DNA of 64,000 bases. Origin: a virus. Lineage: Duplodnaviria > Heunggongvirae > Uroviricota > Caudoviricetes. The notes beneath the pieces are model-generated. The model saw nothing but the letters and a program-made list of their open reading frames with translations, ran no database searches and had not been told where the DNA came from. Shown here piece after piece: positions 6,638-60,300 of this stretch. The number at the start of each line of letters is the position of its first letter. Within the stretch, counting starts at the first letter, position 1. The stretch lies in IMG/VR virus record IMGVR_UViG_2721755721_000001; one strand, given 5' to 3'. The translations under genes were made by a program, and so were the position numbers.

Positions 6638-6668
6638 CGTGGATTACTCCGTTTTCAGCGGTATTTTG

Positions 6669-31474: not shown

Positions 31475-31819
31475 ATGAAGAAAAAATACGAACTGGTTGT
31501 TAAAGGGATAAATAATTACCCGGATAAGATTACTGTTACTGTGGCACTGGAAATTGGTGGGTATCCGTCACTGTTGTTGCCAAATGTGGCGATTAGTCTT
31601 GACCGTACTGAAGGTGCCACGCTGGAGTTTTACGAAGCGGAGGCGAAAAAGCAGGCGAAGCAGTTTTTCATGGATGTTGCTGCCGGGTTATGTGAAGGGG
31701 ATGGTCCGTTGCCGGAAAAGCGGCCCATCATTTTAGAGGCGCAGGATGTGTTGATAACCTACAGAGGAAAACTACCGGGAATAATTACTGGTTCTCTGAA
31801 GACTCCACCGCTGGCCTGA
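31475..31819 (+). CDS. DUF1327-like lysis-cassette protein
   Basis: 114-aa ORF between holin and endolysin; family assignment from memory. Confidence 0.45.
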   Translation: MKKKYELVVKGINNYPDKITVTVALEIGGYPSLLLPNVAISLDRTEGATLEFYEAEAKKQAKQFFMDVAAGLCEGDGPLPEKRPIILEAQDVLITYRGKLPGIITGSLKTPPLA

Positions 31820-31869
31820 AGACTTAACATATCCAGGGATTTGAAATCGATAAACCCTGATAAATATCC

Positions 31870-32403
31870 ATGAACACCAAAATCAAATACGGCCTGTCGG
31901 CTGCCGTTCTGGCGCTGATTGCCGCAGGTGCGCCTGCGCCTGAAATCCTCGACCAGTTTCTGGATGAAAAGGAAGGTAACCACACCACGGCATACCGTGA
32001 TGGCGCGGGTATCTGGACCATCTGCCGCGGTGCCATCCTGGTGGATGGTAAACCTGTCGTTCCGGGCATGAAGTTGTCGAAGGAAAAATGCGACCAGGTT
32101 AACGCCATTGAACGTGATAAGGCGCTGGCATGGGTGGAGAAAAACATCAAAGTGCCACTGACCGAACCCCAGAAAGCGGGGATCGCGTCATTCTGTCCGT
32201 ACAACATTGGTCCCGGTAAATGTTTCCCGTCGACGTTTTACAGACGAATTAATGCAGGTGATCGCAGGGGAGCGTGTGAGGCGATTCGCTGGTGGATTAA
32301 GGACGGTGGCAGAGACTGCCGTATTCGCTCAAATAACTGTTACGGTCAGGTATCCCGTCGCGACCAGGAGAGTGCGCTGGCGTGCTGGGGAATTGACAGA
32401 TAA
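31870..32403 (+). CDS. R: SAR endolysin (T4-lysozyme-like, signal-anchor-release type)
   Basis: 177 aa; N-terminal weakly hydrophobic SAR segment YGLSAAVLALIAAGAPA; lysozyme-like body. Confidence 0.8.
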   Translation: MNTKIKYGLSAAVLALIAAGAPAPEILDQFLDEKEGNHTTAYRDGAGIWTICRGAILVDGKPVVPGMKLSKEKCDQVNAIERDKALAWVEKNIKVPLTEPQKAGIASFCPYNIGPGKCFPSTFYRRINAGDRRGACEAIRWWIKDGGRDCRIRSNNCYGQVSRRDQESALACWGIDR

Positions 32404-32701
32404 GCAGAATATTTTGCTGAAAAATGCGGTTTGCTCACACGGACGGATAACACGAAATCCTGAGAACTGACAAAAACTAAGTGAATAAAAGTAAAAACCC
32501 CATTTGTTGGCTGCAAGCGGGGTTTTGTGTTTCCTGACTCCGGAAAAGTCAAAGGAGAAAGTGTGTTTGATTTTAGCAAACTGATTCGGGAGATTCGAGT
32601 GATGGCTGAAAAATTATCCACCTGGAAGTTCATCCTTATCTGGCTGGTGTTTGTGATTATGGCCTCCGGTTATTTCATCGGTCAGATACGCTGGTGGTGA
32701 A

Positions 32702-33196
32702 ATGAACCGCGTACTGTGCGTGGTCATCATTGCCCTGCTGGTGGCCTGTGGTGCGCTTAGTCTGGGGCTGAATCATTACCGTGATAACGCCATAACCTAC
32801 AAAGAGCAGCGCGATAAAAAAGTCAGTGAGCTGGAGCTGGCAAATGCAACCATTACTGATATGCAGCAGCGCCAGCGTGATGTTGCTGCACTTGATGCCA
32901 GATACTCGAGGGAATTAGCCGATGCGAGAGCTGAAAATGAAACTCTTCGCGCTGACGTTGCCGCTGGTCACCGCAGCCTGCGGATCAACGCCACCTGTCC
33001 AGGTCCCGTGCGTGAAGCCACCGGCACCGCCCGCGTGGATAATGCAACCGGCCCCCAACTGGCAGACACCGTTACACGGGATTATTTCACCCTCAGAGAG
33101 CGGCTGATGACGATGCAGAAGCAACTGGAAGGGGCACAGGACTATATCCGCACTCAGTGTACTAAGCAGGCTTTTTATTATCCGGAGGATGTATGA
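32702..33196 (+). CDS. Rz: Rz i-spanin
   Basis: 164 aa; N-terminal TM, coiled-coil periplasmic domain; Rz1 embedded in +1 frame. Confidence 0.8.
   Translation: MNRVLCVVIIALLVACGALSLGLNHYRDNAITYKEQRDKKVSELELANATITDMQQRQRDVAALDARYSRELADARAENETLRADVAAGHRSLRINATCPGPVREATGTARVDNATGPQLADTVTRDYFTLRERLMTMQKQLEGAQDYIRTQCTKQAFYYPEDV
32937..33107 (+). CDS. Rz1: Rz1 o-spanin lipoprotein embedded in Rz
   Basis: [15 protein letters not shown] lipoprotein signal; Pro-rich mature part; nested in Rz. Confidence 0.7.
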   Translation: MKLFALTLPLVTAACGSTPPVQVPCVKPPAPPAWIMQPAPNWQTPLHGIISPSESG

Positions 33197-33417
33197 AGAA
33201 ATTACAGGTAACGGTAAAACCTTTTCAGGGAACAATTCCGTTCCGTGTTTTGCAACATGGCCGTGTTCTGCTTGAAGAGGTGTTCAGAGGTAAATGCACT
33301 GAATGTTATTCACGAACATATGAAGTGAATGCCACGCATGAAGAATTCACCGTTGAGTGTGTGATGAATACTGATAAATGCCGAATGGTATCCGCTGAAT
33401 TACAGCCAGTGTGTTGA
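33193..33417 (+). CDS. hypothetical small Cys-containing protein downstream of Rz
   Basis: 74-aa ORF conserved in both lysis cassette copies. Confidence 0.45.
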   Translation: MKKLQVTVKPFQGTIPFRVLQHGRVLLEEVFRGKCTECYSRTYEVNATHEEFTVECVMNTDKCRMVSAELQPVC

Positions 33418-33776
33418 GCGACCTTATTATCCATGCGCGGTATTGTCGCCGTATTCCTGCATTAACAGAGACCGCAGCCCGACAGGGCGACTCCTCTGCG
33501 GGAGTGTGCGGGGATAATCAAAAACGATACACACCGGGGTTTACCGCGTAAACGGAGCGCGGCGTTCTCCCCTCATGGTCGCCCGTCCGGTGCGATGGTG
33601 GAAGAAACTGGAATCTGTTCAATAAAAAAAACTGCCGTGTTGGAGTCACAGCAGTAATGTACTGATTGGGTAGAAGATTATTATTGTTATGCTTTATTCT
33701 TATTCTATATGGCTGATTATTTGGTAACCGGCTCATTTAAACCGTCTGGTCTGTTTCCTCCGGCTCTACAAAAATA

Positions 33777-34454
33777 ATGTCCATCATTTTTAATGGACAC
33801 TATCGTATGAAACACCGGACCTGGATCACTGAAGCTTTACGTCTTCACTTTGAAGAACATTTACCCCGGGTTGTGGCCGGGCGTCGCCTGAGTGTACCAA
33901 AATCAACAGTTTGTAGTATGTTCGTGCGCTTTCGGAGAGCTGGCCTTTCGTGGCCTTTGCCCGCAGGCATGTCGGAGCAGGAACTTGATGCCTGCCTTTA
34001 CGGACAATTTTCCACGGTACCAGTCGTACGTCCTGAAAGCACCGTTATATCCGAAGCCCCCGTGGTAAAAAAACGTCCCCGGCGGCCCAACTTCCCTTAT
34101 GAGTTTAAAATCGCCTTAGTGGAGCAGTCACTACAGCCCGGAGCCTGTGTGGCGCAGATCGCCCGGGAAAACGGAATCAACGATAACCTGCTCTTCAACT
34201 GGCGCCATCAATACCGGAAAGGTGGCCTGCTGCCTTCCGGAAAAAATATGCCGGCACTGCTTCCCGTGACGTTAACGCCGGAGCCGGATAATAAAATCCC
34301 GGCCCCCGCACAGGAACCAGAGCAGATAAATACACCGTCCGACAGTCTGTGTTGTGAGCTGGTTCTGCCGGCCGGAACTCTCAGGCTTAAAGGTAAACTG
34401 ACGCCGGCGTTATTACAGACACTTATCCGCGAAATAAAAGGGAGCAGCCACTGA
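33777..34454 (+). CDS. IS66-family accessory protein (orfA-like)
   Basis: first ORF of IS66-type unit; start possibly at MKHRT (33807). Confidence 0.6.
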   Translation: MSIIFNGHYRMKHRTWITEALRLHFEEHLPRVVAGRRLSVPKSTVCSMFVRFRRAGLSWPLPAGMSEQELDACLYGQFSTVPVVRPESTVISEAPVVKKRPRRPNFPYEFKIALVEQSLQPGACVAQIARENGINDNLLFNWRHQYRKGGLLPSGKNMPALLPVTLTPEPDNKIPAPAQEPEQINTPSDSLCCELVLPAGTLRLKGKLTPALLQTLIREIKGSSH

Positions 34455-34801
34455 TGATATCTCTCCCTGCAGGTTCGCGTATCTGGCTGGTTGCAGGTAT
34501 CACCGATATGCGAAATGGCTTTAACGGCCTGGCATCAAAAGTTCAGAACGTCCTGAAGGATGACCCGTTCTCCGGACACCTGTTCATCTTCCGCGGACGC
34601 CGGGGTGACCAGATAAAAGTGTTGTGGGCTGACAGTGACGGACTGTGCCTCTTCACCAAACGCCTGGAGCGGGGCCGCTTCGTCTGGCCAGTCACCCGTG
34701 ACGGCAAGGTGCACCTTACTCCGGCTCAGTTATCCATGCTTCTTGAAGGTATCAACTGGAAGCACCCGAAACGAACGGAACGCGCTGGAATCCGCATATA
34801 A
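34454..34801 (+). CDS. IS66 Orf2-like protein (TnpB)
   Basis: 115 aa MISLPAGSRIWLVAGITDMRNGFNGLASKVQ..., characteristic IS66 orfB. Confidence 0.85.
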   Translation: MISLPAGSRIWLVAGITDMRNGFNGLASKVQNVLKDDPFSGHLFIFRGRRGDQIKVLWADSDGLCLFTKRLERGRFVWPVTRDGKVHLTPAQLSMLLEGINWKHPKRTERAGIRI

Positions 34802-34820
34802 CCCGTTGTAAAGTGAGGAT

Positions 34821-36392
34821 ATGGACACCTCACTTGCTCATGAGAACGCCCGCCTGCGGGCACTGTTGCAGACGCAACAGGACACCATCCGCCAGATGGC
34901 TGAATACAACCGCCTGCTCTCACAGCGGGTGGCGGCTTATGCTTCCGAAATCAACCGGCTGAAGGCGCTGGTTGCGAAACTGCAACGTATGCAGTTCGGT
35001 AAAAGCTCAGAAAAACTTCGTGCAAAAACCGAACGGCAGATACAGGAAGCACAGGAGCGAATCAGCGCACTTCAGGAAGAAATGGCGGAAACGCTGGGTG
35101 AGCAATATGACCCGGTACTGCCATCCGCCCTGCGCCAGTCTTCAGCCCGTAAACCGTTACCGGCCTCACTTCCCCGTGAAACCCGGGTTATCCGGCCGGA
35201 AGAGGAATGCTGTCCTGCCTGTGGTGGTGAACTCAGTTCTCTGGGATGTGATGTGTCAGAGCAACTGGAGCTTATCAGCAGCGCCTTTAAGGTTATCGAA
35301 ACACAACGTCCGAAACAGGCCTGTTGCCGGTGCGACCATATCGTGCAGGCACCAGTACCTTCAAAACCCATTGCACGCAGTTATGCCGGAGCGGGGCTTC
35401 TGGCCCATGTTGTCACCGGGAAATATGCAGACCATCTGCCGTTATACCGCCAGTCAGAAATATACCGTCGTCAGGGAGTGGAGCTGAGCCGTGCCACACT
35501 GGGGCGCTGGACAGGTGCTGTTGCTGAACTGCTGGAGCCGCTGTATGACGTCCTGCGCCAGTATGTGCTGATGCCCGGTAAAGTCCATGCTGATGATATC
35601 CCCGTCCCGGTCCAGGAGCCGGGCAGCGGTAAAACCCGGACAGCCCGGCTGTGGGTCTACGTCCGTGATGACCGTAACGCCGGTTCACAGATGCCCCCGG
35701 CGGTCTGGTTCGCGTACAGTCCGGACCGGAAAGGTATCCATCCACAAAATCACCTGGCCGGTTACAGCGGTGTGCTTCAGGCCGATGCTTACGGTGGTTA
35801 CCGGGCGTTATACGAATCCGGCAGAATAACGGAAGCCGCGTGTATGGCTCATGCCCGGAGAAAAATCCACGATGTGCATGCAAGAGCGCCCACCTACATC
35901 ACCACGGAAGCCCTGCAGCGTATCGGTGAACTGTATGCCATCGAGGCAGAGGTCCGGGGCTGTTCAGCAGAACAGCGTCTGGCGGCAAGAAAAGCCAGAG
36001 CCGCGCCACTGATGCAGTCACTGTATGACTGGATACAGCAACAGATGAAAACACTGTCGCGTCACTCAGATACGGCAAAAGCGTTCGCATACCTGCTGAA
36101 ACAGTGGGATGCACTGAACGTGTACTGCAGTAATGGCTGGGTGGAAATCGACAACAACATCGCAGAGAACGCCTTACGGGGAGTGGCCGTAGGCCGGAAA
36201 AACTGGATGTTCGCGGGTTCCGACAGCGGTGGTGAACATGCGGCGGTGTTGTACTCGCTGATCGGCACATGCCGTCTGAACAATGTGGAGCCAGAAAAGT
36301 GGCTGCGTTACGTCATTGAACATATCCAGGACTGGCCGGCAAACCGGGTACGCGATCTGTTGCCCTGGAAAGTTGATCTGAGCTCTCAGTAA
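34821..36392 (+). CDS. IS66-family transposase (TnpC)
   Basis: 523 aa; N-terminal leucine-zipper-like region, CPACGG zinc motif, conserved catalytic core. Confidence 0.85.
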
Positions 36393-36422
36393 ATATCAAT
36401 ACGGTTCTGACGAGTCGCTTAC

Positions 36423-36713
36423 ATTACTGTTACTGTGGCACTGGAAATTGGTGGGTATCCGTCACTGTTGTTGCCTGATGTGGCGATTAGTCTTGACCGT
36501 ACTGAAGGAGCCACGCTGGAGTTTTACGAAGCTGAGGCGAAAAAGCAGGCGAAGCAGTTTTTCATGGATGTTGCTGCCGGGTTATGTGAAGGGGATGGTC
36601 CGTTGCCGGAAAAGCGGCCCATCATTTTAGAGGCGCAGGATGTGTTGATAACCTACAGAGGAAAACTACCGGGAATAATTACTGGTTCTCTGAAGACTCC
36701 ACCGCTGGCCTGA
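36423..36713 (+). pseudogene. 5'-truncated second copy of DUF1327-like gene (starts at IS66 junction)
   Basis: sequence after the IS right end aligns with 31527 onward of copy 1; N-terminal 22 codons missing. Confidence 0.7.
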
Positions 36714-36763
36714 AGACTTAACATATCCAGGGATTTGAAATCGATAAACCCTGATAAATATCC

Positions 36764-37297
36764 ATGAACACCAAAATCAGATACGGCCTGTCGGCTGCCG
36801 TTCTGGCGCTGATTGCCGCAGGTGCGCCTGCGCCTGAAATCCTCGACCAGTTTCTGGATGAAAAGGAAGGTAACCACACCACGGCATACCGTGATGGCGC
36901 GGGTATCTGGACCATCTGCCGCGGTGCCATTCTGGTGGATAGTAAACCTGTCGTCCCGGGCATGAAGTTGTCGAAGGAGAAATGCGACCAGGTTAACGCC
37001 ATTGAACGTGATAAGGCGCTGGCATGGGTGGAGAAAAACATCAAAGTGCCACTGACCGAACCCCAGAAAGCGGGGATCGCGTCATTCTGTCCGTACAACA
37101 TTGGTCCCGGTAAGTGTTTCCCGTCGACGTTTTATAAACGAATTAATGCAGGTGATCGCAGGGGAGCGTGTGAGGCGATTCGCTGGTGGATTAAGGACGG
37201 TGGCAGAGACTGCCGTATTCGTTCAAACAACTGCTACGGTCAGGTATCCCGTCGTGACCAGGAGAGCGCGCTGGCGTGCTGGGGTATCGACAGATAA
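36764..37297 (+). CDS. R: SAR endolysin, second diverged copy
   Basis: 177 aa, about 98 percent identical to 31870-32403 product. Confidence 0.8.
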   Translation: MNTKIRYGLSAAVLALIAAGAPAPEILDQFLDEKEGNHTTAYRDGAGIWTICRGAILVDSKPVVPGMKLSKEKCDQVNAIERDKALAWVEKNIKVPLTEPQKAGIASFCPYNIGPGKCFPSTFYKRINAGDRRGACEAIRWWIKDGGRDCRIRSNNCYGQVSRRDQESALACWGIDR

Positions 37298-37778
37298 GCA
37301 GAATATTTTGCTGAAAAATAAAGCATGGCCACGCGGGCGGATAACATGAAATCCTGCGAACTGGCGAAACGTAAGTGAATAAAAGTAAAAACCCCGTTTG
37401 TTGGCACCAAGCGGGGTTTTGTGTTTCTGACCTTGAGTAAGGCAAGGGAGAACATGGCGAAGTATAAACGAATTCTGTTGAGGTTGACCATGAAAAACGG
37501 CCTTGAACTGAAAGCGCCTGTAACTGATGACATCAGCAGAGCACTGGCTTTTGCCATTAAGTGGGTGGCGGTCGGTGTTGCTGTGTCCCCGATGCTGTAT
37601 GGGCTGGCAAAACTGGTCATTGCGTTGAAATCGTGAAGGGAGGATTAAGCATGTCAGACAAACTCATAACGCTGGCGAAGATCCTCTGTGTAATTGTCGG
37701 CATTTCATTTTCACTAATGCTGGTTGCTCTTTTTCTTTCCATGGCCTGGATGATGTTGTCTTCGTCGGGGCTGCTGGG

Positions 37779-38279
37779 GTGAACATAAACCGAATGCTTT
37801 CCGCGTTTATCGTTATTCTGCTGGTGGCCTGTGGTGCGCTGTGGATGGCAACAGACCATTACCGTGATAACGCGATTACCTACAAAGCGCAGCGCGATAA
37901 CAAAGCCAGTGAACTGAAGCTGGCGAACGCAACCATTACTGATATGCAGGTGCGCCAGCGCGATGTTGCTGCGCTCGATGCAAAATACTCGAGGGAATTA
38001 GCCGATGCGAGAGCTGAAAATGAAACTCTTCGCGCTGACGTTGCCGCTGGTCGTAAGCGCCTGCGGATCAACGCCACCTGTCCAGGCTCCGTGCGTGAAG
38101 CCCCCACCACCTCCGGCGTGGATAATGCAACCGGCCCCCGACTGGCAGACACCGCTGAACGGGATTATTTCATCCTCAGAGAACGGTTGATGACAATGCA
38201 GAAGCAGCTGGAAGGGGCGCAGGAATATATCCGCACTCAGTGCACTAAGCTGGCTTTTTATTATCCGGAGGATATATGA
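37779..38279 (+). CDS. Rz: Rz i-spanin, second copy (diverged N-terminus)
   Basis: 166 aa; C-terminal two thirds near-identical to copy 1, N-terminus differs. Confidence 0.75.
38020..38190 (+). CDS. Rz1: Rz1 o-spanin, second copy
   Basis: [15 protein letters not shown] lipoprotein signal, embedded in Rz copy 2. Confidence 0.7.
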
Positions 38280-38500
38280 AGAAATTACTGGTAACCGTAA
38301 AGCCTTTTCAGGGAACAATTCTGTTCCGTATTTTGCAGCGTGGTCGTGTTCTTGTTGAAGGTTCGTTCAGTGGTAAATGTACGCAATTACACTCCCGGAC
38401 CTTTCAGGTGAATGCCACGAATGAAGAGCTAACCGTTGAGTGTACGATGAATGCCGCTAAATGCCGCATGGTATCCGCTGCATTACAGCCAGTGTGTTGA
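38276..38500 (+). CDS. hypothetical small Cys-containing protein, second copy
   Basis: homolog of 33193-33417 product. Confidence 0.45.
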
Positions 38501-38823
38501 GCGACCTTATTATCCATGCGCGGTATTGTCGCCGTATTCCCGCATTAACAGAGACCGCAGCCCGACCGGGAGACTCCTCTTCGCGAGTGTGCGGGGATAA
38601 TCAAAAACGATACACACCGGGGTTTACCGCGTTAACGGAGCGCGGCGTTGCCCCTCATAGTCGCCTGTCCGGTGCGATGGTGGAAGAAGCCGGACGATGT
38701 GTTACCTCGCAAGCCCTGTTATGTGTCTGATTTGTGATTTAAGTCGGATAATTGTCGTTGCCATCAAGCAGAGGATTGATGACCGACAGGGTGGCATTGT
38801 TAGAATAAGACTTATTCTTATCT

Positions 38824-40194: not shown

Positions 40195-40758
40195 GTGCTG
40201 ACAACGCAAAAACGAAAATTTGCGCTGGCGCTCATGTCCGGGAAAAACAAAACAGCGTCAGCCATTGCCGCCGGTTATTCGGCGAAGACCGCCAGGGTTA
40301 AAGGCTCGCAGCTGGCAAAAGATCCGGAGGTGCTCGCGTTTATAGCCCGTAAACAGTGCGAGACGGTGGAGGTGGATGAGGTTCCTGTTTACCGGCAGAA
40401 AAAATCAGAGCAGGAGGATAAACCCCGTCGCCGTGAGGTGGCTGCAATACCACAGCCGGACGAAAACAATCCGGAGATGCCACCGTCCGCGGTGATGTCT
40501 CCTGGTATTGAATATATGGAGGATGGTCTTCCCGATCCGGTGAAAGCCATGGGGCGGATCCTGGTGGAAAACCTCTGCATTGATCCGAAACTGGCACTGG
40601 ATGCGGCCTGGCGTCTGGCGCAGTTCACGCACCATAAAAAAGGCGATGCCGGTAAAAAATCGGCAAAAGGTGATGCCGCGAAAAAAGCGGCTAACCGTTT
40701 TGCGGTGCCACCACCTCCCCGGCTGGTGGTGAATAACCAGAATGAGGAAAGCGGATGA
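40195..40758 (+). CDS. terminase small subunit
   Basis: 187-aa ORF directly upstream of and overlapping terminase large subunit. Confidence 0.65.
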   Translation: MLTTQKRKFALALMSGKNKTASAIAAGYSAKTARVKGSQLAKDPEVLAFIARKQCETVEVDEVPVYRQKKSEQEDKPRRREVAAIPQPDENNPEMPPSAVMSPGIEYMEDGLPDPVKAMGRILVENLCIDPKLALDAAWRLAQFTHHKKGDAGKKSAKGDAAKKAANRFAVPPPPRLVVNNQNEESG

Positions 40759-42416
40759 TACCTGTATGGAGCACGGCATGTCCGGACTGGGCAGAGCGCC
40801 TGCAAAAGGGACTGTCGATTATTCCGGCTCCGATTTATCCGGACCAGGCTGCACATGCCCTGGCGATTTTTAAACAACTGCGGATTGTGGATGCACCGGG
40901 TAGCCCGACGTTCGGGGAGTCCTGCGCACCGTGGGTGTTTGACCTGGTGGCGGCCCTGTTTGGCTCCTATGATGCGCAGACCGGTGTACGCCATATCAAG
41001 GAAGTGTTTATCCTTATCCCCAAGAAAAACAGTAAGTCCACGCTGGCCGCGGGGATCATGATGACGGCGCTGTTACTGAACTGGCGGCAGGCGGCGGGCT
41101 ACACCATTCTGGCCCCGACCGTGGAGGTGGCGGCCAACGCCTTCAACCCTGCCAGGGATATGGTGCGACGGGACGATGATCTGGATGACCTCTGTCAGGT
41201 GCAGACACATATCCGGACCATCACCCATCGGGTGACGGACACCACCCTGAAGGTGGTGGCAGCCGATCCGAATACGGTGTCCGGTATCAAGTCCGTGGGG
41301 ACACTGATTGATGAACTGTGGCTGTTTGGCAAGCAGTACAAAGCGGAAGACATGCTACGTGAAGCCATCGGCGGGCTTGCCTCCCGTCCGGAAGGATTTG
41401 TGGTGTACACAACCACCCAGTCGAATGAGCCGCCAGCCGGGGTGTTCAGACAGAAACTGCAGTACGCCCGGGATGTCCGTGACGGCAAAATTCATGATCC
41501 GCACTTTCTGCCGGTGATATTTGAACACCCTCCTGAAATGGTGGAAAGCGGGGCTCACCTGCTGATGGAAAACCTCGCCATGGTTAACCCGAATCTCGGT
41601 TATTCGGTGGATGAGGCTTTTCTGTACCGGGAGTACCGTAAAGCCCGGGAGGCTGGTGAGGAAGCATTTCGTGGCTTCATGTCAAAACACGCCAATGTGG
41701 AAATCGGTCTTGCCCTGCGTTCTGACCGCTGGGCGGGCGCGGATTTCTGGGAGCAGCAGGGCAGGCGCGTCAGCCTGGACGATATCCTGCAGCGCGCTGA
41801 TGTGGTGACGGTGGGGATTGACGGCGGGGGCCTGGATGATCTGCTGGGAATGTACGTGACTGGCCGTGACAGGGAAACCCGCGAATGGCTGGGCTGGGGC
41901 CATGCCTGGGTGCATGAAACCGCGGTGGTCAGACGGAAGAGTGAGGCATCCCGGTTTCAGGATTTTGTGGCCTGTGGAGACATGACGATTGTCCGTCGGG
42001 TCGGGGATGACACGGCGGAAGTGGCGGAGTATGTGCGTCGTATTCATGAGGCTGAGTTACTGGACCATATCGGTATTGACCCGTCAGGGGTGGGGCAGAT
42101 TCTGGATTCACTGGCGGAAGCCGGGATCCCCGATGAGAGTGTGGTGGGGATAAGCCAGGGCTGGAAGCTGGGCGGGGCCATCAAAACCACCGAGCGCAAA
42201 CTGGCTGAAGGGGTGCTGATTCACGGTGATCAGCCCCTGATGGCCTGGTGTGTCGGTAATGCCCGGGTGGAGCCTAAAGGTAACGCCATTCTTATCACCA
42301 AACAGGCCAGCGGACGGGGAAAAATTGACCCGCTGATGGCGCTCTTCAATGCGGTGTCCCTGATGTCCCTTAACCCGGAACCGAAAAAGAAAGCGTATGA
42401 GGTTTTTTTCATATAA
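40755..42416 (+). CDS. terminase large subunit
   Basis: 553 aa; typical size and position; ATPase/nuclease-type acidic motifs. Confidence 0.8.
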   Translation: MIPVWSTACPDWAERLQKGLSIIPAPIYPDQAAHALAIFKQLRIVDAPGSPTFGESCAPWVFDLVAALFGSYDAQTGVRHIKEVFILIPKKNSKSTLAAGIMMTALLLNWRQAAGYTILAPTVEVAANAFNPARDMVRRDDDLDDLCQVQTHIRTITHRVTDTTLKVVAADPNTVSGIKSVGTLIDELWLFGKQYKAEDMLREAIGGLASRPEGFVVYTTTQSNEPPAGVFRQKLQYARDVRDGKIHDPHFLPVIFEHPPEMVESGAHLLMENLAMVNPNLGYSVDEAFLYREYRKAREAGEEAFRGFMSKHANVEIGLALRSDRWAGADFWEQQGRRVSLDDILQRADVVTVGIDGGGLDDLLGMYVTGRDRETREWLGWGHAWVHETAVVRRKSEASRFQDFVACGDMTIVRRVGDDTAEVAEYVRRIHEAELLDHIGIDPSGVGQILDSLAEAGIPDESVVGISQGWKLGGAIKTTERKLAEGVLIHGDQPLMAWCVGNARVEPKGNAILITKQASGRGKIDPLMALFNAVSLMSLNPEPKKKAYEVFFI

Positions 42417-42479
42417 CCCTGCTCACCCTGTAACCATCATGAACCGCTGCGGCGGTTTTTTTATTTTCAGGAGGCTGAT

Positions 42480-42960
42480 GTGACTCTTAAACGGGCCTGT
42501 TCCCTGCTGACGGTGAAATCCTTCAGTGAGGATGAGCGGGTGATCACCGGGATTGCGTCAACGCCTTCTCCGGATCGGGATGGTGACATCCTGGAGCCGG
42601 AGGGCGCGGAGTTTGGCAGTGCGATCCCGTTTCTCTGGCAGCATGACCATTCCCGCCCGGTGGGGCAGTGTACGGTGCGCCGGGTCAGCGAAGGGCTGGA
42701 AATCACGGCAACACTGGCGAAGCCCGTGCCGGATATGCCATCGCAACTGGTTGCCCGGCTGGATGAGGCCTGGGCGGCCATTAAGACCGGGCTGGTCAGG
42801 GGGCTTTCCGTGGGCTTCCGTCCCCATGAATACACCTTTCTGGACGGAGGCGGACTGCATTTTCTGCGCTGGGAACTGATGGAGGTGTCTGCCGTCACCG
42901 TGCCCGCGAATGCGGAATGCACCATCCGGACCATTAAATCTTACGACCGCCCGTTTTCTG
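42480..42960 (+). pseudogene. prohead protease N-terminal fragment truncated at tandem-duplication junction
   Basis: identical start to the 44309 ORF, diverges after 42959 where sequence re-enters terminase (copy of 41136 onward). Confidence 0.7.
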
Positions 42961-44245
42961 CACTAACGCCTTCAACCCTGCCAGGGATATGGTACGACGG
43001 GACGATGATCTGGATGACCTCTGTCAGGTGCAGACACATATCCGGACCATCACCCATCGGGTGACGGACACCACCCTGAAGGTGGTGGCAGCCGATCCGA
43101 ATACGGTGTCCGGTATCAAGTCCGTGGGGACACTGATTGATGAACTGTGGCTGTTTGGCAAGCAGTACAAAGCGGAAGACATGCTACGTGAAGCCATCGG
43201 CGGGCTTGCCTCCCGTCCGGAAGGATTTGTGGTGTACACAACCACCCAGTCGAATGAACCGCCTGCCGGGGTGTTCAGACAGAAACTGCAGTACGCCCGG
43301 GATGTCCGTGACGGCAAAATTCATGATCCGCACTTTCTGCCGGTGATATTTGAACACCCTCCTGAAATGGTGGAAAGCGGGGCTCACCTGCTGATGGAAA
43401 ACCTCGCCATGGTCAATCCGAATCTCGGTTATTCGGTGGATGAGGCTTTTCTGTACCGGGAGTACCGTAAAGCCCGGGAGGCTGGTGAGGAAGCATTTCG
43501 TGGCTTCATGTCAAAACACGCCAATGTGGAAATCGGTCTTGCCCTGCGTTCTGACCGCTGGGCGGGCGCGGATTTCTGGGAGCAGCAGGGCCGTTGTATC
43601 AGCCTGGACGATATCCTGCGTCGTGCTGATGTGGTGACGGTGGGGATTGACGGCGGAGGGCTGGATGATCTGCTGGGAATGTACGTGATTGGGCGTGACC
43701 GGGAGACCCGCGAATGGCTGGGCTGGGGCCATGCCTGGGCGCATGAAACCGCGGTGGTCCGACGGAAGAGCGAGGCGTCCCGGTTTCAGGATCTTGTTGC
43801 CTGTGGAGATATGACCATTGTCCGGCGTGTCGGGGATGACACGGCGGAAGTGGCGGAATATGTGCGTCGCATTCATGAGGCTGAGTTACTGGACCATATC
43901 GGTATTGACCCGTCAGGGGTGGGGCAGATTCTGGATTCACTGGCGGAAGCCGGGATCCCCGACGGAATTGTGGTGGGGATAAGCCAGGGCTGGAAACTGG
44001 GCGGGGCCATCAAAACCACCGAGCGCAAACTGGCTGAAGGGGTGCTGATTCACGGTGATCAGCCCCTGATGGCCTGGTGTGTCGGTAATGCCCGGGTGGA
44101 GCCTAAAGGTAACGCCATTCTTATCACCAAACAGGCCAGCGGACGGGGAAAAATTGACCCGCTGATGGCGCTCTTCAATGCGGTGTCCCTGATGTCCCTG
44201 AATCCGGAACCGAAAAAGAAAGCGTATGAGGTTTTTTTCATATAA
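42961..44245 (+). pseudogene. duplicated 3' two thirds of terminase large subunit gene
   Basis: 42966-44245 aligns with 41136-42416 at about 97-98 percent identity; lacks N-terminal third. Confidence 0.7.
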
Positions 44246-44308
44246 CCCTGCTCACCCTGTAACCATCATGAACCGCTGCGGCGGTTTTTTTATTTTCAGG
44301 AGGCTGAT

Positions 44309-46246
44309 GTGACTCTTAAACGGGCCTGTTCCCTGCTGACGGTGAAATCCTTCAGTGAGGATGAACGGGTGATCACCGGGATTGCGTCAACGCCTTCTCC
44401 GGATCGGGATGGTGACATCCTGGAGCCGGAGGGGGCTGAGTTTGGCAGTACGATCCCGTTTCTCTGGCAGCATGACCATTCCCGCCCTGTAGGACAGTGT
44501 ACGGTGCGTCGGGTCAGGGAAGGGCTGGAAATCACGGCAATGCTGGTGAAGCCGGAGCCGGGGATGCCCTCCCAGATGGCAGCCCGGCTGGATGAGGCCT
44601 GGGCTGCCATTAAGACCGGGCTGGTCAGGGGGCTTTCTGTGGGCTTCCGGCCCCATGAATACACTTATCTGGACGGAGGCGGACTGCATTTTCTGCGCTG
44701 GGAGCTGATGGAGGTGTCTGCCGTCACCGTGCCCGCGAATGCGGAATGCACCATCCGGACCATTAAATATTTCGACCGCCCGTTTTCTGCCGCGTCCGGC
44801 AACCGGAAACCGGTGGTGAAAATCGCATCTTCTGCCGGCGCTGCGGCACAGTCAATAACCTCTTTTCATAAGGAAAAGTCAGCAATGAATACTGGTGAAC
44901 AGATTAAAAGTTTTGAAAACAAGCGTGCGGCGCTGGCAGCCTCCCTTGAGGAGATCATGAACAAAGCCGCAGAGGAAGGCCGCACACTGGATGTGGAAGA
45001 GGAAGAGCACTACGACAACACCGCAGCGGAAATCCGTCAGGTGGATGCGCACCTGAAGCGTCTGCGTGAACTGGAAACCAGTAAGGCCGCCACGGCACAG
45101 CCGGTGAAACAGGCCGGTAACGGGAATGTGGCCACGGTGGCTTCAGCGCCGGTGATCCGTGTTGAGCAGAAACTGGAGAAGGGGATTGGTTTCGCCCGCT
45201 TTGCCAAATCACTGGCCGCGGCTAAAGGTGTCCGCTCTGAAGCCCTGGAAGTGGCCCGTCGTCAGTATCCGGATGACAGCCGTCTGCATCATGTCCTGAA
45301 ATCGGCGGTGGGGGCAGGGACCACCACGGACCCACAGTGGGCAGGCAGCCTGTCTGAATATCAGGAATATGCGCAGGACTTTATTGATTACCTGCGTCCG
45401 CAGACCATTATCGGGCGATTTGGTCAGGGCGGGATCCCTGCACTTCGTCAGGTGCCGTTCAATATCCGCGTGCATGCCCAGGTGTCCGGCGGTGCTGCCA
45501 GCTGGGTGGGGGAGGGTAAGGCCAGACCCCTGACGAAGTTTGATTTTGAGTCCATCACCTTCAGTCATGCGAAGGTGTCGGCCATTGCGGTACTGACGGA
45601 AGAGCTGATCCGTTTTTCCAGTCCGGCAGCTGATGCGCTGGTCCGTAATGCGCTGGCAGAAGCGGTGGTGGCGCGTCTGGACACAGACTTTGTGGACCCG
45701 AAAAAAGCCGCAGTGGCAGATGTCTCCCCGGCGTCCATCACCCATGATGTGAAGGGCACGGCATCAACCGGTAACCCGGATGCGGATGCCGAGGCGGCGT
45801 TTGGCCAGTTTGTGGCAGCAAACCTGCAGCCCACCGGTGCGGTCTGGCTGATGTCCAGCACCAATGCCCTGGCACTGTCCATGCGTAAAAATGCGCTGGG
45901 TCAGAAGGAATACCCGGACATGACCCTGCTGGGTGGCTCCTTCCAGGGGCTGCCGGTGATTGTCTCCCAGTACGTGGGTGACCAGCTGGTGCTGGTGAAT
46001 GCCCCGGATATTTATCTGGCGGATGACGGCGGTGTGGCAGTGGATATGTCCCGTGAAGCGTCACTGGAAATGCAGTCTGAGCCGGGCGGCGACAGCACCA
46101 CACCGTCGCCGGTGGAGCTGGTTTCCATGTTCCAGACCGGCAGCGTGGCCATCCGTGCGGAGCGCTGGATCAACTGGCGTCGTCGCCGTACTGCGGCGGT
46201 GGCTGTGATCACCGGTGTGAACTACGGCAGTGCGTCCGGCGGCTGA
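44309..46246 (+). CDS. prohead protease - major capsid protein fusion (HK97-like)
   Basis: 645 aa; N-terminal protease-like region followed by capsid-like domain. Confidence 0.7.
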   Translation: MTLKRACSLLTVKSFSEDERVITGIASTPSPDRDGDILEPEGAEFGSTIPFLWQHDHSRPVGQCTVRRVREGLEITAMLVKPEPGMPSQMAARLDEAWAAIKTGLVRGLSVGFRPHEYTYLDGGGLHFLRWELMEVSAVTVPANAECTIRTIKYFDRPFSAASGNRKPVVKIASSAGAAAQSITSFHKEKSAMNTGEQIKSFENKRAALAASLEEIMNKAAEEGRTLDVEEEEHYDNTAAEIRQVDAHLKRLRELETSKAATAQPVKQAGNGNVATVASAPVIRVEQKLEKGIGFARFAKSLAAAKGVRSEALEVARRQYPDDSRLHHVLKSAVGAGTTTDPQWAGSLSEYQEYAQDFIDYLRPQTIIGRFGQGGIPALRQVPFNIRVHAQVSGGAASWVGEGKARPLTKFDFESITFSHAKVSAIAVLTEELIRFSSPAADALVRNALAEAVVARLDTDFVDPKKAAVADVSPASITHDVKGTASTGNPDADAEAAFGQFVAANLQPTGAVWLMSSTNALALSMRKNALGQKEYPDMTLLGGSFQGLPVIVSQYVGDQLVLVNAPDIYLADDGGVAVDMSREASLEMQSEPGGDSTTPSPVELVSMFQTGSVAIRAERWINWRRRRTAAVAVITGVNYGSASGG

Positions 46247-46290
46247 GTCTGATGAGGAGGGCGGGAGGTAAGAGCGTCCCGCAGTAACTG

Positions 46291-46512
46291 ATGGCAAAAA
46301 TCCGATATCTGCAGGGTACACATGATGCCCGGCCCGGGGATATCCGGGATGTCGCACAGCCGTGTGCGGAGGTGCTGGTTCGCCTGAGGAAGGCGGAGTA
46401 CATCACAGTGCGACGTCCGGCAGGTCAGAAAAAGAAACGTGATGCGGAGCATGGCGAATGTGGAACCTTTTGCGGCGAACCCGAAAAAACCAGAAATCAG
46501 GACGTGACGTAA
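46291..46512 (+). CDS. hypothetical small protein
   Basis: ORF between capsid and portal genes; overlaps portal ORF start. Confidence 0.3.
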   Translation: MAKIRYLQGTHDARPGDIRDVAQPCAEVLVRLRKAEYITVRRPAGQKKKRDAEHGECGTFCGEPEKTRNQDVT

Positions 46513-47822
46513 GAGAAGTGGGCTGGCGGTCCCTGTTTCAGGCGGTGGCTGAGCCTTTTGCCGGTGCCTGGCAGCAGGGTGTGAAAGCCGATCCGGAAAC
46601 CGTTTTGTCCTTTCACGCGGTGTTTTCATGCATTTCGCTGATATCCCAGGATATTGCCAAAATGCGGCTTCGCCTGATGCAGACTGATGTACAGGGAATA
46701 CGCCGGGAAAAGCGGCAGGGAGATACTGCCCGTCTCTGTCGTCGTCCTAATGCACAGCAGAATCGCATCCAGTTTTTTGAACTGTGGCTGAATTCCAAAT
46801 TGCGTCACGGCAATACGGTGGTGCTGAAAATCCGCAACCACCGGGGGCAGATCAAAGAACTGCGTATTCTGGACTGGAGCCGGGTTGAACCTCTGGTGGC
46901 GGATGACGGCGACGTGTTCTACCGCATCACGCCGGACCGGAACTGTGGGATCACGGAGGCGGTGACGGTGCCTGCCCGGGAGGTGATCCACGACCGTTTT
47001 AACTGTTTTTTTCATCCGCTTGTGGGGCTGCCGCCGGTGTATGCCGCAGGACTGGCCGCCATGCAGGGGCATCATATTCAGGCAAATTCGACGTATTTTT
47101 TCAGAAATGGCGGGCGACCATCAGGCGTGATTGAGGTCCCCGGCAGTATTACGGAAGAAAACGCGAAAAAACTGAAGGGGAACTGGGACAGCGGATATAC
47201 GGGCGAAAATGCGGGGAAAACGGCCATACTGAGCAACGGGGCAAAATACAGCCCTACGACGTTTTCACCGGTGGATGCGCAGACGGTGGAACAACTGAAA
47301 ATGACGGCTGAAATTGTCTGTTCGGTGTTCCGTGTCCCGGCCTACAAGATTGGCGTTGGCCACCCGCCTTCCAGTGACAACGTGGAGGCGCTGGAGCAGC
47401 AGTATTATTCCCAGTGTCTGCAGACGCTGATTGAGTCCATTGAGCTGTTACTGGATGAGGCGCTGGAAACGGGGGAAAACGAGAGCACGGAGTTTGACGT
47501 CACCACGCTGCTGAGAATGGACAGCGAACGGCGCATGAAAACACTGGGTGAATCGGTGAAAAATACGCTTCTCACGCCCAATGAGGCCCGTAAACGTGAG
47601 AACCTGCCGCCCCTTGCGGGAGGTGATGCACTGTATCTTCAGCAGCAGAACTACAGTCTGGAGGCGCTGTCCCGTCGTGATGCCCGTGAAGATCCGTTTG
47701 CGTCGTCCGGGAAAAGAGTTTCAGCCCAACTGCCTGACGGCGCATCTGACGGTAATAAGGCAATCAGTGAAACAGAGCATGGTGCGTTGAAAGCGATGTT
47801 GAGGGGGATACTGCGAAAATGA
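46458..47822 (+). CDS. portal protein
   Basis: 454 aa, size and position; start uncertain. Confidence 0.65.
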   Translation: MWNLLRRTRKNQKSGRDVREVGWRSLFQAVAEPFAGAWQQGVKADPETVLSFHAVFSCISLISQDIAKMRLRLMQTDVQGIRREKRQGDTARLCRRPNAQQNRIQFFELWLNSKLRHGNTVVLKIRNHRGQIKELRILDWSRVEPLVADDGDVFYRITPDRNCGITEAVTVPAREVIHDRFNCFFHPLVGLPPVYAAGLAAMQGHHIQANSTYFFRNGGRPSGVIEVPGSITEENAKKLKGNWDSGYTGENAGKTAILSNGAKYSPTTFSPVDAQTVEQLKMTAEIVCSVFRVPAYKIGVGHPPSSDNVEALEQQYYSQCLQTLIESIELLLDEALETGENESTEFDVTTLLRMDSERRMKTLGESVKNTLLTPNEARKRENLPPLAGGDALYLQQQNYSLEALSRRDAREDPFASSGKRVSAQLPDGASDGNKAISETEHGALKAMLRGILRK

Positions 47823-48556
47823 CGGAACGGGAACTGTCCATTATTCGTGCACTGGGCGAAGAATTCGCCACGGTGCTGGCGGATTTACAGCACACATTTG
47901 AGGAGAAGATGGCCGCGCAGGCACAAGCGTTTGAAGAGAAACTGGCTTCCCTGTCGGCGGTATTACAGAAGCATGTGACGGTGGATGAGGTACATCCGGT
48001 TCTGCAGGCGATGGTGGATGACGCTGTGGGGGCCATTTCGGTACCGCGTGATGGTCGTGACTACGATCCCGATGTTCTGCGGAAGGCGGTTCTGGAGGCG
48101 GTGAATGCCCTTCCGGCTCCGCAGGACGGGCGTGATGCCACGGCACTGGAAGTGCTCCCCGCTATTGACGATCAAAAATCCTTTCCCCGGGGCACGTATG
48201 CCACACACCTGGGTGGACTCTGGCGGGCGTATGAAAAAACGCACGGGATGCGGGGATGGGAATGCCTGGTTGACGGGGTGGCGGATATCGACGTCAGCAT
48301 GACGGATGAGCGGTTGTTCTCTGTGGTGATCCGGCAGAGCAGTGGCCAGTGTACGGAAAAAACATTTTCCCTGCCGGTGATGCTCTACCGCGGTGTGTTC
48401 AGAGCCGGTGAAACCTACCACCCCGGCGATACGGTGACGTGGGGGGGCTCGCTGTGGCACTGCAACAGTATGACCGGTGATAAACCCGGAGAAGCTCATT
48501 CATCAGGCTGGACCCTGGCTGCAAAACGTGGACGGGATGCAGGAGGCGGAAAATGA
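47819..48556 (+). CDS. hypothetical head-associated protein
   Basis: 245-aa ORF coupled to portal gene. Confidence 0.4.
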   Translation: MTERELSIIRALGEEFATVLADLQHTFEEKMAAQAQAFEEKLASLSAVLQKHVTVDEVHPVLQAMVDDAVGAISVPRDGRDYDPDVLRKAVLEAVNALPAPQDGRDATALEVLPAIDDQKSFPRGTYATHLGGLWRAYEKTHGMRGWECLVDGVADIDVSMTDERLFSVVIRQSSGQCTEKTFSLPVMLYRGVFRAGETYHPGDTVTWGGSLWHCNSMTGDKPGEAHSSGWTLAAKRGRDAGGGK

Positions 48557-57146: not shown

Positions 57147-57381
57147 AAAGAATAAAAAAATCCCGCAGAGTTGCGGAACTGAGGGAGCGTTACGAAGATT
57201 AAGTGTAAGGAATTATTCTTATGTCACGACAAAAAACATTAACGCAGAGAAATTATTAGCACCACAGTCAGTTTGTAAAAATGTGAAGATATTCAGAAGT
57301 TTTATTCAGTGATGATACAGGCATCCTCAGGGATGCCTGTTGTTTTTGTGCGTAACAGTTATCACAGTAAAGGGTGAGACA

Positions 57382-60300
57382 ATGGGCAAAGGTGGCGGCA
57401 AGGCGCACACACCGCGCGAGGCGAAGGACAATCTCAAATCCACGCAGATGATGAGTGTGATTGATGCGATTGGTGAGGGACCGATAGAAGGCCCGGTGAA
57501 AGGCCTGCAGAGTATTCTGGTGAACAAAACCCCGCTGACGGACACGGACGGTAATCCCGTGATACACGGTGTGACGGCGGTCTGGCGCGCCGGGGAGCAG
57601 GAGCAGACACCACCGGAAGGCTTTGAGTCCTCCGGAGCTGAAACCGGACTGGGCGTGGAAGTGACGAAGGCAAAACCGGTGACGCGCACCATTACGTCTG
57701 CGAACATTGACCGCCTGCGGGTTACCTTCGGGGTGCAGTCACTGGTGCAGACCACGTCAAAGGGCGACCGTAATCCTTCCTCTGTCCGGATTCTGATTCA
57801 GTTACAGCGTAATGGCCGCTGGGTGACGGAAAAGGACGTCACCATTAACGGCAAGACCACCTCACAGTTCCTGGCCTCGGTGATTCTGGAGAATCTGCCT
57901 CCCCGGCCCTTTAACATCCGGATGGTCAGGGAGACGGCGGACAGCACCACGGACCAGCTGCAGAATAAGACGCTCTGGTCGTCATACACCGAAATCATCG
58001 ATGTGAAACAGTGCTACCCGAACACGGCCATTGTGGGGCTGCAGGTGGATGCGGAGCAGTTCGGCGGCCAGCAGATGACGGTGAACTACCATATCCGCGG
58101 TCGCATCATTCAGGTACCGTCAAACTATGACCCGGAAAAACGCACGTACAGCGGCATCTGGGACGGCAGCCTGAAACCGGCATACAGCAACAACCCGGCC
58201 TGGTGCCTGTGGGACATGCTGACTCACCCGCGCTACGGCATGGGAAAACGCCTGGGGGCCGCGGATGTGGACAAGTGGGCGCTGTATGCCATCGGGCAGT
58301 ACTGTGACCAGCGTGTCCCGGACGGCTTCGGAGGGACAGAGCCGCGGATGACCTTTAATGCGTACCTGTCACAACAGCGTAAGGCGTGGGACGTTCTCAG
58401 TGATTTCTGCTCGGCGATGCGCTGTATGCCGGTATGGAACGGCCAGACGCTGACGTTCGTTCAGGACCGCCCGTCGGATGTGGTGTGGCCGTACACCAAC
58501 AGCGATGTGGTGGTGGATGATAACGGCGTGGGGTTCCGCTACAGCTTCAGCGCCCTGAAGGACCGCCACACGGCGGTGGAGGTGAATTACACCGACCCGC
58601 AGAACGGCTGGCAGACCTCCACGGAACTGGTGGAAGACCCGGAAGCCATACTGCGCTACGGGCGCAACCTGCTGAAGATGGATGCGTTCGGTTGCACCAG
58701 TCGCGGTCAGGCCCACCGTGCCGGGCTGTGGGTGATAAAGACCGGACTGCTGGAAACGCAGACGGTGGATTTCACGCTCGGGTCACAGGGGCTGCGTCAC
58801 ACACCCGGTGACATTATTGAAATCTGTGATAACGACTATGCCGGGACCATGACCGGCGGACGTATCCTGTCCATCGATGCCGCCAGCCGCACCCTGACAC
58901 TGGACCGTGAGGTGACCCTGCCGGAGACCGGTGCCGCCACGGTGAACCTGATTAACGGCAGCGGTAAGCCGGTGAGTGTGGACATCACCGCACACCCCGC
59001 GCCGGACCGGATACAGGTCAGCACCCTGCCTGATGGTGTGGAGACATACGGTGTATGGGGACTATCCCTGCCGTCACTGCGCCGTCGCCTGTTCCGCTGT
59101 GTCTCCGTCCGGGAAAACACGGACGGCACCTTTGCCATCACGGCGGTGCAGCACGTACCGGAAAAAGAAGCCATCGTGGATAACGGTGCCCGCTTTGAGC
59201 CGCAGTCAGGCACCCTGAACAGCGTCATCCCTCCGGCAGGTGCAGCACCTGACGGTGGAGGTGAGCGCAGCTGACGGCCAGTATCTGGCGCAGGTGAAAT
59301 GGGACACGCCGCGGGTGGTGAAGGGCGTGCGCTTCAGTCTGCGCCTGACCAGTGGAAGCGGTCAGGACAGCCGTCTGGTGACCACCGCCATCACCGCGGA
59401 TACAGAGCACCGTTTCAGCGGTCTGCCGCCGGGGGAATACACCCTGACGGTCAGGGCGATTAACAGTTATGGCCAGCAGGGGGAACCGGCCACCACCACG
59501 TTCAGGATTAATGCACCTGCGGTACCCGCCACGATTGAGCTGACACCGGGCTATTTTCAGATAACAGCGGTCCCGCGTCTTGCGGTGTATGACCCGACGG
59601 TACAGTTTGAGTTCTGGTTTTCGGAGACAAAAATCGCAGATACATCTCAGGTGGAAACCTCTGCCCGTTATCTGGGGACCGGCAGTCAGTGGAGTGTATC
59701 CGGCCCGCACATTAAGCCCGGGAAGGATTTCTGGTTTTACGTGCGCAGCGTCAACCTGGTGGGGAAATCTGCTTTTGTGGAAGCCAGTGGCCGGGCCAGC
59801 AATGATGCAGAAGGGTATCTGGGGCTGTTTCGGGAAAAAATAGGAAAACTGCATCTGGCTCAGGGGCTGTGGGAGCTGATAGACAACAGCCAGCTTGCGG
59901 ATGAGATGGCGGAGATGAAGACCACCATCACAGAAACCCGCAATGAAATCACGCAGACGGTCAGTAAAACCCTGGAAGACCAGAGTGCCACCATACAGCA
60001 GATACAGCGGGTGCAGACAGACACAAATAACGACCTGGCTGCGCTGTATATGCTGAAGGTGCAGAAAACGAAAAACGGCATTCCGTATGTTGCCGGTATA
60101 GGTGCGGGGATTGAGGATGCTGATGGCCAGCCCCTGAGCAATATTCTGCTGCAGGCAGACCGTATCGCGATGATTAACCCGGAGGACGGCAACAGCACGC
60201 CGTTATTTGTGGCGCAGGGGAATCAGTTGTTCATGAACGATGTGTTCCTGAAGCGGCTGTTTGCGGTGAGTATCACCTCGTCCGGCAATCCCCCGACGTT

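Follow-up and report, generated by a model that had tools for sequence, protein, structure and literature searches.

How does a phage genome come to hold two different versions of one stretch of DNA side by side, and does such an arrangement reflect recombination or the way in which the genome was assembled? The question is raised by a tandem repeat across the junction between the genes for the large terminase subunit (TerL) and the prohead protease, in a stretch of 64,000 nucleotides (IMG/VR record IMGVR_UViG_2721755721_000001; the whole stretch is referred to as the window, and its coordinates are used throughout). The window was found to be part of the chromosome of Escherichia coli strain S50 (CP010238.1), and the element harbouring the repeat to be a lambdoid prophage of 56.1 kb integrated at argW (10555-66689). 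With moderate confidence, the repeat is regarded here as a real and very recent rearrangement of this prophage, produced by one illegitimate joint followed by a return to the resident (P) type of sequence, and not as a functional device.

Structure of the repeat

The repeat is direct, head to tail and gapless, with a period of 1829 that corresponds to the copy length (1826) plus three joint bases (ACT, 42962-42964). Copy 1 covers 41136-42961 and copy 2 covers 42965-44790, a match far beyond chance. A tandem duplication over the terminase-large/prohead-protease junction, as proposed in an earlier note made from the letters of the DNA, was thus present, and the boundaries given there (41136-42960 and 42961-44790) were right within a few bases (off by 1-4). 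The divergence of 2-3 percent reported in the same note was too low, as the copies differed at 68 of 1826 positions (96.28% identity, 3.7% divergence). Both peptides quoted there (RRVSLDDILQRADV and RCISLDDILRRADV) were recovered, and the described gene content (an intact TerL, a truncated protease, a TerL fragment and an intact protease-capsid fusion) was matched by Pfam domains and open reading frames (ORFs). The duplicated block begins exactly at TerL codon 128 and ends inside the head protease gene. Differences between the copies were clustered in mosaic patches, separated by identical stretches of up to 263 bases. There were no N bases between the copies, and the sequence was continuous over 42950-42975.

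Origin of the two copies

Comparison with other prophages indicates that the copies are two pre-existing natural alleles, and not a duplication with later drift. For 67 of the 68 differences, both bases were known among 37 distinct alleles of other prophages, which excludes divergence after the duplication and implies that two related phage genomes contributed; the remaining difference was common to copy 1 and its closest relative (L087). The private derived mutations that would mark duplication followed by divergence in place were not found. Each copy was nearer to some outside allele than to its partner. Copy 1 showed 0-2 mismatches to a lineage, here called P, that comprises ten single-copy loci from different samples (L083-L091 and L097, the last being a re-sampling of the L084 contig). 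The allele of copy 2, here called Q, was 41 mismatches from the nearest outside allele, versus 68 between the copies, and could be covered end to end by six segments, each identical to a known allele. Synonymous codon differences between the copies outnumbered non-synonymous ones overall (42 versus 19) as well as in TerL (26 versus 8) and the protease (16 versus 11).

The flanks could be assigned in the same way. The single-copy Logan contig L087 was identical to S50 over 1687 bases of left flank and the 1826 bases of copy 1 (0 mismatches in 3513), and the right arm differed from the P lineage by a single mismatch (44932) in the 2 kb after 44803. With both flanks and copy 1 being P-type, the S50 prophage equals the P lineage plus an extra foreign block (Q), which extends from approximately 42964 to somewhere within 44803-45334. 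Relatives of copy 2 are indistinguishable from the P lineage between 44804 and ~45280-45334, so that the end of the foreign tract can be placed anywhere in this interval; the G at 44932 is possibly its last marker. Copy 2, the linker that follows and the first 40 bases of the right flank form one natural haplotype, as seen from an 832-base exact match to locus L002 (44011-44842).

The linker between the protease and scaffold parts also separates the two alleles. Among 61 loci compared, 53 carried the consensus version (TTCTGC-CGCGTCCGGCAAC-CGGAAACC), and only the eight P-lineage loci carried the version TTCTGC-A-CGGAAACC, a 12-base deletion that removes the codons for ASGN. The P-lineage linker (L083-L091 and L097; equivalent to 44791-44803) also has a GCC>GCA change, and the fusion protein of this lineage is 641 amino acids (aa) long. 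The lineage was met only in draft, metagenome and Logan assemblies, and none of the complete RefSeq E. coli genomes held its TerL/protease region at more than 98.1% identity.

The joint

Copy 1 ends in ...TTCTGCAC, 0-2 bases from the 12-base deletion specific to the P lineage. The bases ACT at 42962-42964 are not filler: A and C continue the P allele of copy 1, and T is the base that relatives of copy 2 carry at a C/T polymorphic site equivalent to 41135. The joint connects P (...TTCTGCA[C]) to Q ([C]TAACGCC) with an overlap of 0-1 base. Neither insertion sequence (IS) ends nor repeats were found at this position, as expected for illegitimate recombination, and positions 41136 and 42962 have no sequence in common, whereas an unequal homologous crossover would call for a repeat or IS at both ends. 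No Chi site was found beside the breakpoint (ACCGGTGG is two mismatches from GCTGGTGG). Because the Q-type T lies only 1 base from the joint, Q DNA probably took part in the joint itself.

From these features we infer the following order of events. A resident prophage of the P lineage would have met DNA of a second, related phage with TerL/protease allele Q. An illegitimate joint with 0-1 base of homology would have linked TerL codon 127/128 of Q to a P genome whose break lay behind ...TTCTGCA(C) in the protease/scaffold linker. Within at most ~530 bases to the right of this linker the sequence would have become P type again, either through homologous exchange where P and Q are the same, or because a Q patch was already present in the second parent, itself a P-lineage phage; the variant in which such a P-lineage second parent stood in tandem at the same site belongs to this same explanation. 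The product would hold one intact TerL, one intact protease-capsid gene, an additional 1829 bases and two gene fragments. As to the enzymology, the joint could stem from strand exchange that was halted by the 12-base heterology, with a half crossover at that intermediate and subsequent end joining, or from a replicative template switch. Recombination between co-resident lambdoid prophages has been shown experimentally (PMC2669165), and recombination with another phage has a precedent in the S50 prophage itself, since a second two-allele duplication in it spans an IS66-family element (described below).

A more specific proposal, that the locus is a snapshot of mosaic formation, is doubtful. Strand exchange starting in the identical stretch right of the linker would have stalled at the 12-base heterology, been cut, and had its ends joined without homology. 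If so, the resident allele was kept and the incoming one placed next to it, and the position of the illegitimate joint was tied to the nearby indel, which would amount to heterology-directed, out-of-register recombination.

Occurrence in other sequences

The joint was absent from 5426 complete E. coli genomes (a collection that does not include CP010238.1), IMG/VR, GTDB representative genomes and JGI metagenomes. The head-module DNA itself is 95-97% identical to that of Stx1a, Stx2a and Stx2c phages. Matching phage records numbered 93, at 90-99% identity and mostly from phages of these three types, and all 25 matches listed out of the 93 spanned ~3772 bases of the 5601-base query, which is what single-copy loci would give. 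When 112 fetched loci were compared with themselves, the repeat was seen in only four, all of them S50 itself. The exact TerL protein was encoded on 14 contigs, and was single-copy in all except S50. The two ORFs at the joint (194 and 418 aa) had no exact-protein match, Logan/ENA assemblies included, a negative result that is weak evidence because NCBI treats such ORFs as pseudogenes and short-read assemblies would break at the repeat.

Could an S50-like ancestor instead have given rise to the single-copy P lineage through loss of 42963-44803? This would reproduce the P linker exactly, though it is unparsimonious, because a second illegitimate event must then end on the first joint. A much commoner event would be homologous collapse of the repeat, and that would leave the consensus linker. 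Derivation of the P lineage from the S50 product was rejected as unlikely.

Artefact or recombination

The alternative that survives best is an assembly artefact of the kind termed heterotype false duplication, to which we assign a substantial but lesser probability. Two alleles would have been present in the S50 DNA, either from two closely related prophages or from a mixed culture, and the assembler would have collapsed the flanks and placed the two allele contigs serially. The locus has the corresponding form, with allele-specific copies between collapsed, near-identical flanks, and the block ends within 1-2 bases of the outermost P/Q differences (C/T at 41135/42964 on one side, the 12-base indel on the other). 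These coincidences also weigh against a real rearrangement, and they strengthen the caveat of the earlier note that the repeat could be an assembly artefact. The P breakpoint lies 0-2 bases from the sole P/Q indel, for which the estimated chance in a random illegitimate event is ~0.3%, and the Q breakpoint lies 0-1 base from a polymorphic site (estimated chance coincidence ~7%); an allele-aware process, such as an assembler, would explain both more naturally. Further points count on the same side. The structure is known from one assembly only, of 2014-era date, and a second two-allele pseudo-duplication, with IS66 between its copies and likewise seen in this assembly only, is present in the same prophage. 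False duplications of this type have been described (PMC9516828). Among genomes with this head module, the median number of matching places per genome is 2. A Q-type donor prophage could not be demonstrated in S50: the exact TerS, TerL, portal, capsid-fusion and Lom proteins were each encoded once in the chromosome, and a 108-aa connector protein was too widespread to mark a second prophage. Neither copy has private mutations or decay, which fits a young event and an artefact equally.

Other properties of the locus argue against misassembly. There is no gap or N run between the copies, as a scaffolding join would leave, and the joint is one base off from where a base-exact split between alleles would be predicted. 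It also lacks the k-1 bases of flank that concatenated de Bruijn contigs would leave, which supports a real event and led to rejection of simple contig concatenation. The phasing of copy 1 is flawless, even over identical stretches as long as 263 bases, which calls for reads of a length that would have revealed the true structure as well. The flanking genes have no second copy in the finished chromosome by exact-protein matching, and the surrounding array is coherent in its attachment (att) repeats and synteny. Accuracy at the level of single bases is high, judging from perfect matches to other strains over 10 kb and 3.5 kb. None of the 5426 complete genomes held either copy at more than 98.3% identity, so neither was pasted from a public reference; the specific case of copy 1 pasted from a reference genome was rejected, with no complete genome matching above 98.1%. 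An untrimmed overlap from contig circularisation was likewise rejected, the joint being at ~444,841 of the 4,797,106-base record. A literature search for the sequencing and assembly method of S50 returned only an accession list.

Other explanations of the two alleles

A single unequal crossover between two prophages at different chromosomal places, with the left arm from one and the right arm from the other, would also bring distinct alleles together, and several prophages with this head module are found together in many E. coli genomes. This explanation is improbable and, in our view, already refuted by the lineage assignments and synteny: the left arm, copy 1 and the right arm are all of the same lineage, and such a crossover would delete or invert the chromosome between the two places, whereas here the element is bordered by argW-yfdC-mlaA-fadL and csc-dsdA and has att repeats at each of its boundaries. 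The suggestion of the earlier note, unequal recombination of two related prophages and not a fresh duplication, holds as regards the two alleles and their pre-existing divergence; it does not hold as a simple left-arm/right-arm crossover, as both arms belong to the P lineage.

Spontaneous tandem duplications arise in phage and bacterial genomes, and one phage genome could have been duplicated in place, with copy 2 later altered by mutation or by gene conversion from another prophage. We consider this very unlikely. Shared polymorphisms at 67 of 68 differing sites are not new mutations, and the foreign tract reaches the joint, with the Q-type T 1 base away, where homologous conversion would need homology on the far side; gene conversion after duplication was rejected on this ground. 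Sequence searches did not find a relative with the same joint and two identical P-type copies.

Least likely of all is a selected functional duplication, in which the benefit would come from a free protease, from packaging-length stuffer DNA, or from an N-terminally shortened TerL that acts in regulation or against phages. In its favour, almost all of the S78 domain is kept in the protease fragment, with a good ribosome-binding site ahead of it, and the ORF of the TerL fragment is intact. Against it, the protease ORF has an out-of-frame tail, the start context of the TerL fragment is poor, the arrangement is conserved nowhere outside one genome, and the prophage, at 56 kb in a family ranging over 49-58 kb, is not short of DNA and also carries the IS66 element and a frameshifted gene J.

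Gene content of the region

Pfam matches for Terminase_2, TerL_ATPase, TerL_nuclease, Peptidase_S78, Phage_capsid and Phage_portal, all above curated cut-offs, identify the region as a head and packaging module of HK97 type (Table 1). The truncated protease ORF has a GTG start with an AGGAGG Shine-Dalgarno sequence upstream. The frame of the TerL fragment is open from 42938, without fusion to the protease frame, and the AGGGA ahead of its ATG appears too close to be a good ribosome-binding site. The match to PF03354 (residues 63-224 of the intact protein) is lost from the fragment, which therefore lacks the complete ATPase expected of a functional large terminase. The 645-aa fusion is chimeric, with a Q-type protease domain and consensus linker followed by a scaffold/capsid part of the P lineage, and the exact protein was found in CP010238.1 only. 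No function is evident for the duplication, and it bears no sign of selection.

Table 1. Features of the duplicated region and its flanks, and sequences diagnostic of each arrangement.
Feature	Coordinates	Strand	Remarks
Small terminase subunit gene (TerS)	40195..40758	+	Pfam Terminase_2; single copy, left of the duplication
Intact large terminase, TerL	40755..42416	+	553 aa; Pfam TerL_ATPase and TerL_nuclease; codon 128 onward lies within copy 1
Copy 1, P-type allele	41136..42963	+	Ends in GCA C, the P-lineage version of the protease/scaffold linker (12-base deletion)
Terminator-like hairpin with T run, first copy	42441..42458	+	TerL/protease intergenic region
Truncated protease ORF	42480..43064	+	194 aa; S78 domain up to residue ~160; last 34 residues out of frame, read from copy 2
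Novel joint, ...TTCTGCA[C] to T AACGCC...	42962..42964	+	0-1 base of microhomology; no IS, no repeat
Copy 2, Q-type allele	42964..44790	+	First base is the equivalent of 41135 (T here, C in the left flank)
TerL fragment ORF	42989..44245	+	418 aa, from Met136; matches Pfam TerL_nuclease only
Terminator-like hairpin, second copy	44270..44287	+	Identical to the first
Intact protease-scaffold-major capsid fusion	44309..46246	+	645 aa; Pfam Peptidase_S78 and Phage_capsid
Consensus-type linker	44791..44803	+	CGCGTCCGGCAAC; the P lineage has a single A instead
Non-P base in right flank	44932	+	G here, T in all 8 P-lineage loci; sole non-P base in 2 kb
Portal gene	46458..47822	+	Pfam Phage_portal; single copy, right of the duplication
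Diagnostic of the joint			CGTTTTCTGCACTAACGCCTTC; CGTTTTCTGCACTAACGCCTTCAACC
Diagnostic of the single-copy P-type joint			CGTTTTCTGCACGGAAACCGG; CGTTTTCTGCACGGAAACCGGTGG
Diagnostic of the Q-type left context			GGTGGCGGCTAACGCC; GGAGGTGGCGGCTAACGCCTTC
Diagnostic of the Q-type linker			TTCTGCCGCGTCCGGCAACCGG

The order TerL, protease-scaffold-capsid fusion and portal (40755-47822) was common to all relatives examined; the portal gene follows the capsid gene, the canonical HK97 order being terminase, portal, protease and capsid. The gene 3' of the portal gene (47819-48556) varied among relatives (L094-L096 and L103-L111) in steps of 54 aa (245, 299, 353 and 407 aa), a result of a 162-base tandem repeat, and the S50 version was the shortest seen. 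In two other assemblies (L094 and L095, at ~4100-6800), an IS66-family element occupied the 64-base TerL/protease intergenic region of the same module, showing that this spacer tolerates large insertions.

The prophage and its surroundings

The repeat-bearing prophage is the second element of a tandem array at the tRNA-Arg(CCT) gene argW, and follows a P4-like satellite. Partial argW att repeats at -1343 and 10555 mark the element boundaries, an intact tRNA-Arg(CCT) argW lies at window-equivalent 66682-66756, and the chromosomal flanks are syntenic (csc-dsdXA on one side, argW-yfdC-mlaA-fadL on the other). An arrangement as coherent as this excludes crossover between prophages at distant loci, whether genuine or introduced by misassembly. 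The satellite spans -1343 to 10555, starting ~1343 bases ahead of the window, and encodes two Psu-domain proteins, an Ogr/Delta protein, a Toprim/DUF927 primase and a 424-aa integrase; over 10,261 bases it was 100% identical to a satellite of strain Z1323HEC0108. The end of the prophage, past the window (L113, 12419-15833; window-equivalent ~63.3-66.8 kb), contains IS1 fragments, a gene for an OspG/NleH-type kinase and a 385-aa integrase gene abutting argW. The integrase gene thereby adjoins the tail/cargo end of the prophage, where in lambda it is near the early genes. Phages sharing the head module range over 49-58 kb, and the 56-kb prophage is near the top of this range.

The second duplication lies 5 kb upstream of the terminase/protease repeat and, unlike the latter, has an IS66-family element (~33654-36422) between its copies. 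Two alleles of a lysis cassette (DUF1327', lysozyme, Rz and a 74-aa gene) flank this element at 31529-33612 and 36423-38694, with 95.5% and 87% identity in two aligned parts. The element has no 8-base target-site duplication, and copy B begins exactly at its right end. The arrangement looks like recombination between IS copies of two phages, or a mis-join through the IS.

In the tail-tip gene J, a 1-base insertion at window position 59239 (GGCAGGTGC versus GGCA-GTGC in a relative) causes a +1 frameshift and splits the gene into ORFs at 57340-59274 and 59240-60856; it may be either a true inactivating mutation or a base-calling error. Because of the IS66-family element with its flanking lysis-cassette alleles and the frameshifted gene J, the prophage is probably defective.

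Implications and comparison with known systems

The duplication would be expected to add 1829 bases to the prophage, within the size range of its relatives, and to yield a protease domain freed from its scaffold/capsid tether, a TerL fragment without the N-terminal ATPase part that is probably poorly translated, and a capsid-fusion gene that is chimeric yet intact. Homologous recombination should eventually collapse the repeat. If the event is real, recombination between related prophages can be seen here in its raw product, a clean and datable case with one non-homologous joint and one homologous exchange, free of later decay and with both parental alleles identifiable. Intermediates of this sort are assumed by models of phage mosaicism and have rarely been caught, and the breakpoint on an allele-specific indel hints at the mechanism. 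If it is an artefact, the locus is a warning that 'complete' bacterial genomes can hold allele-pair false duplications in prophages, which inflate pseudogene counts. In either case the workings of the phage family are unchanged, the structure being confined to one strain.

Spontaneous tandem duplications formed by illegitimate recombination in phage lambda and in bacterial chromosomes are known from the classical lambda genetics of the 1970s and from work on gyrase-mediated illegitimate recombination. Like these, the S50 duplication is head to tail, with nothing between the copies, 0-1 base of homology and the essential genes intact at its outer edges. Unlike them, its copies are different population alleles, and hence from two genomes and not from sisters, and its breakpoint falls on an allele-specific indel. 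Replicative template switching, as in the models of fork stalling and template switching (FoSTeS) and microhomology-mediated break-induced replication (MMBIR), would likewise give a duplication with a stretch templated from paralogous sequence, minimal microhomology and a homology-based return to the original template, although the 1-base microhomology in S50 is at the low end for that mechanism. In the account of Hendrix and Juhala for HK97 and HK022, phage mosaicism reportedly arises from random non-homologous joints that are later trimmed and filtered by selection. The S50 locus, an out-of-register joint of related genomes with redundant fragments, is like the raw intermediate which that model predicts, but the product shows no sign of viability or of being ancestral to anything.

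Co-resident lambdoid prophages of E. coli O157 Sakai recombine into chimeric phages (PMC2669165). There, as proposed for S50, related lambdoid prophages with near-identical stretches exchange segments, and the S50 head module is that of Stx1, Stx2 and Stx2c phages. The Sakai events are in-register homologous replacements, whereas the S50 joint is out of register and non-homologous, the incoming allele being added beside the resident one. Heterotype false duplications in assemblies of diploid eukaryotes usually show a gap between the copies and half the read depth (PMC9516828). S50 resembles them in its adjacent alleles, the allele-specific sequence in both copies and the identical flanks, and differs in that the genome is haploid and the copies have no gap between them. 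Taken together, the S50 feature resembles two known kinds of event, tandem duplication by illegitimate recombination and recombination between lambdoid prophages, and differs from both in its side-by-side alleles and in the placement of its breakpoint.

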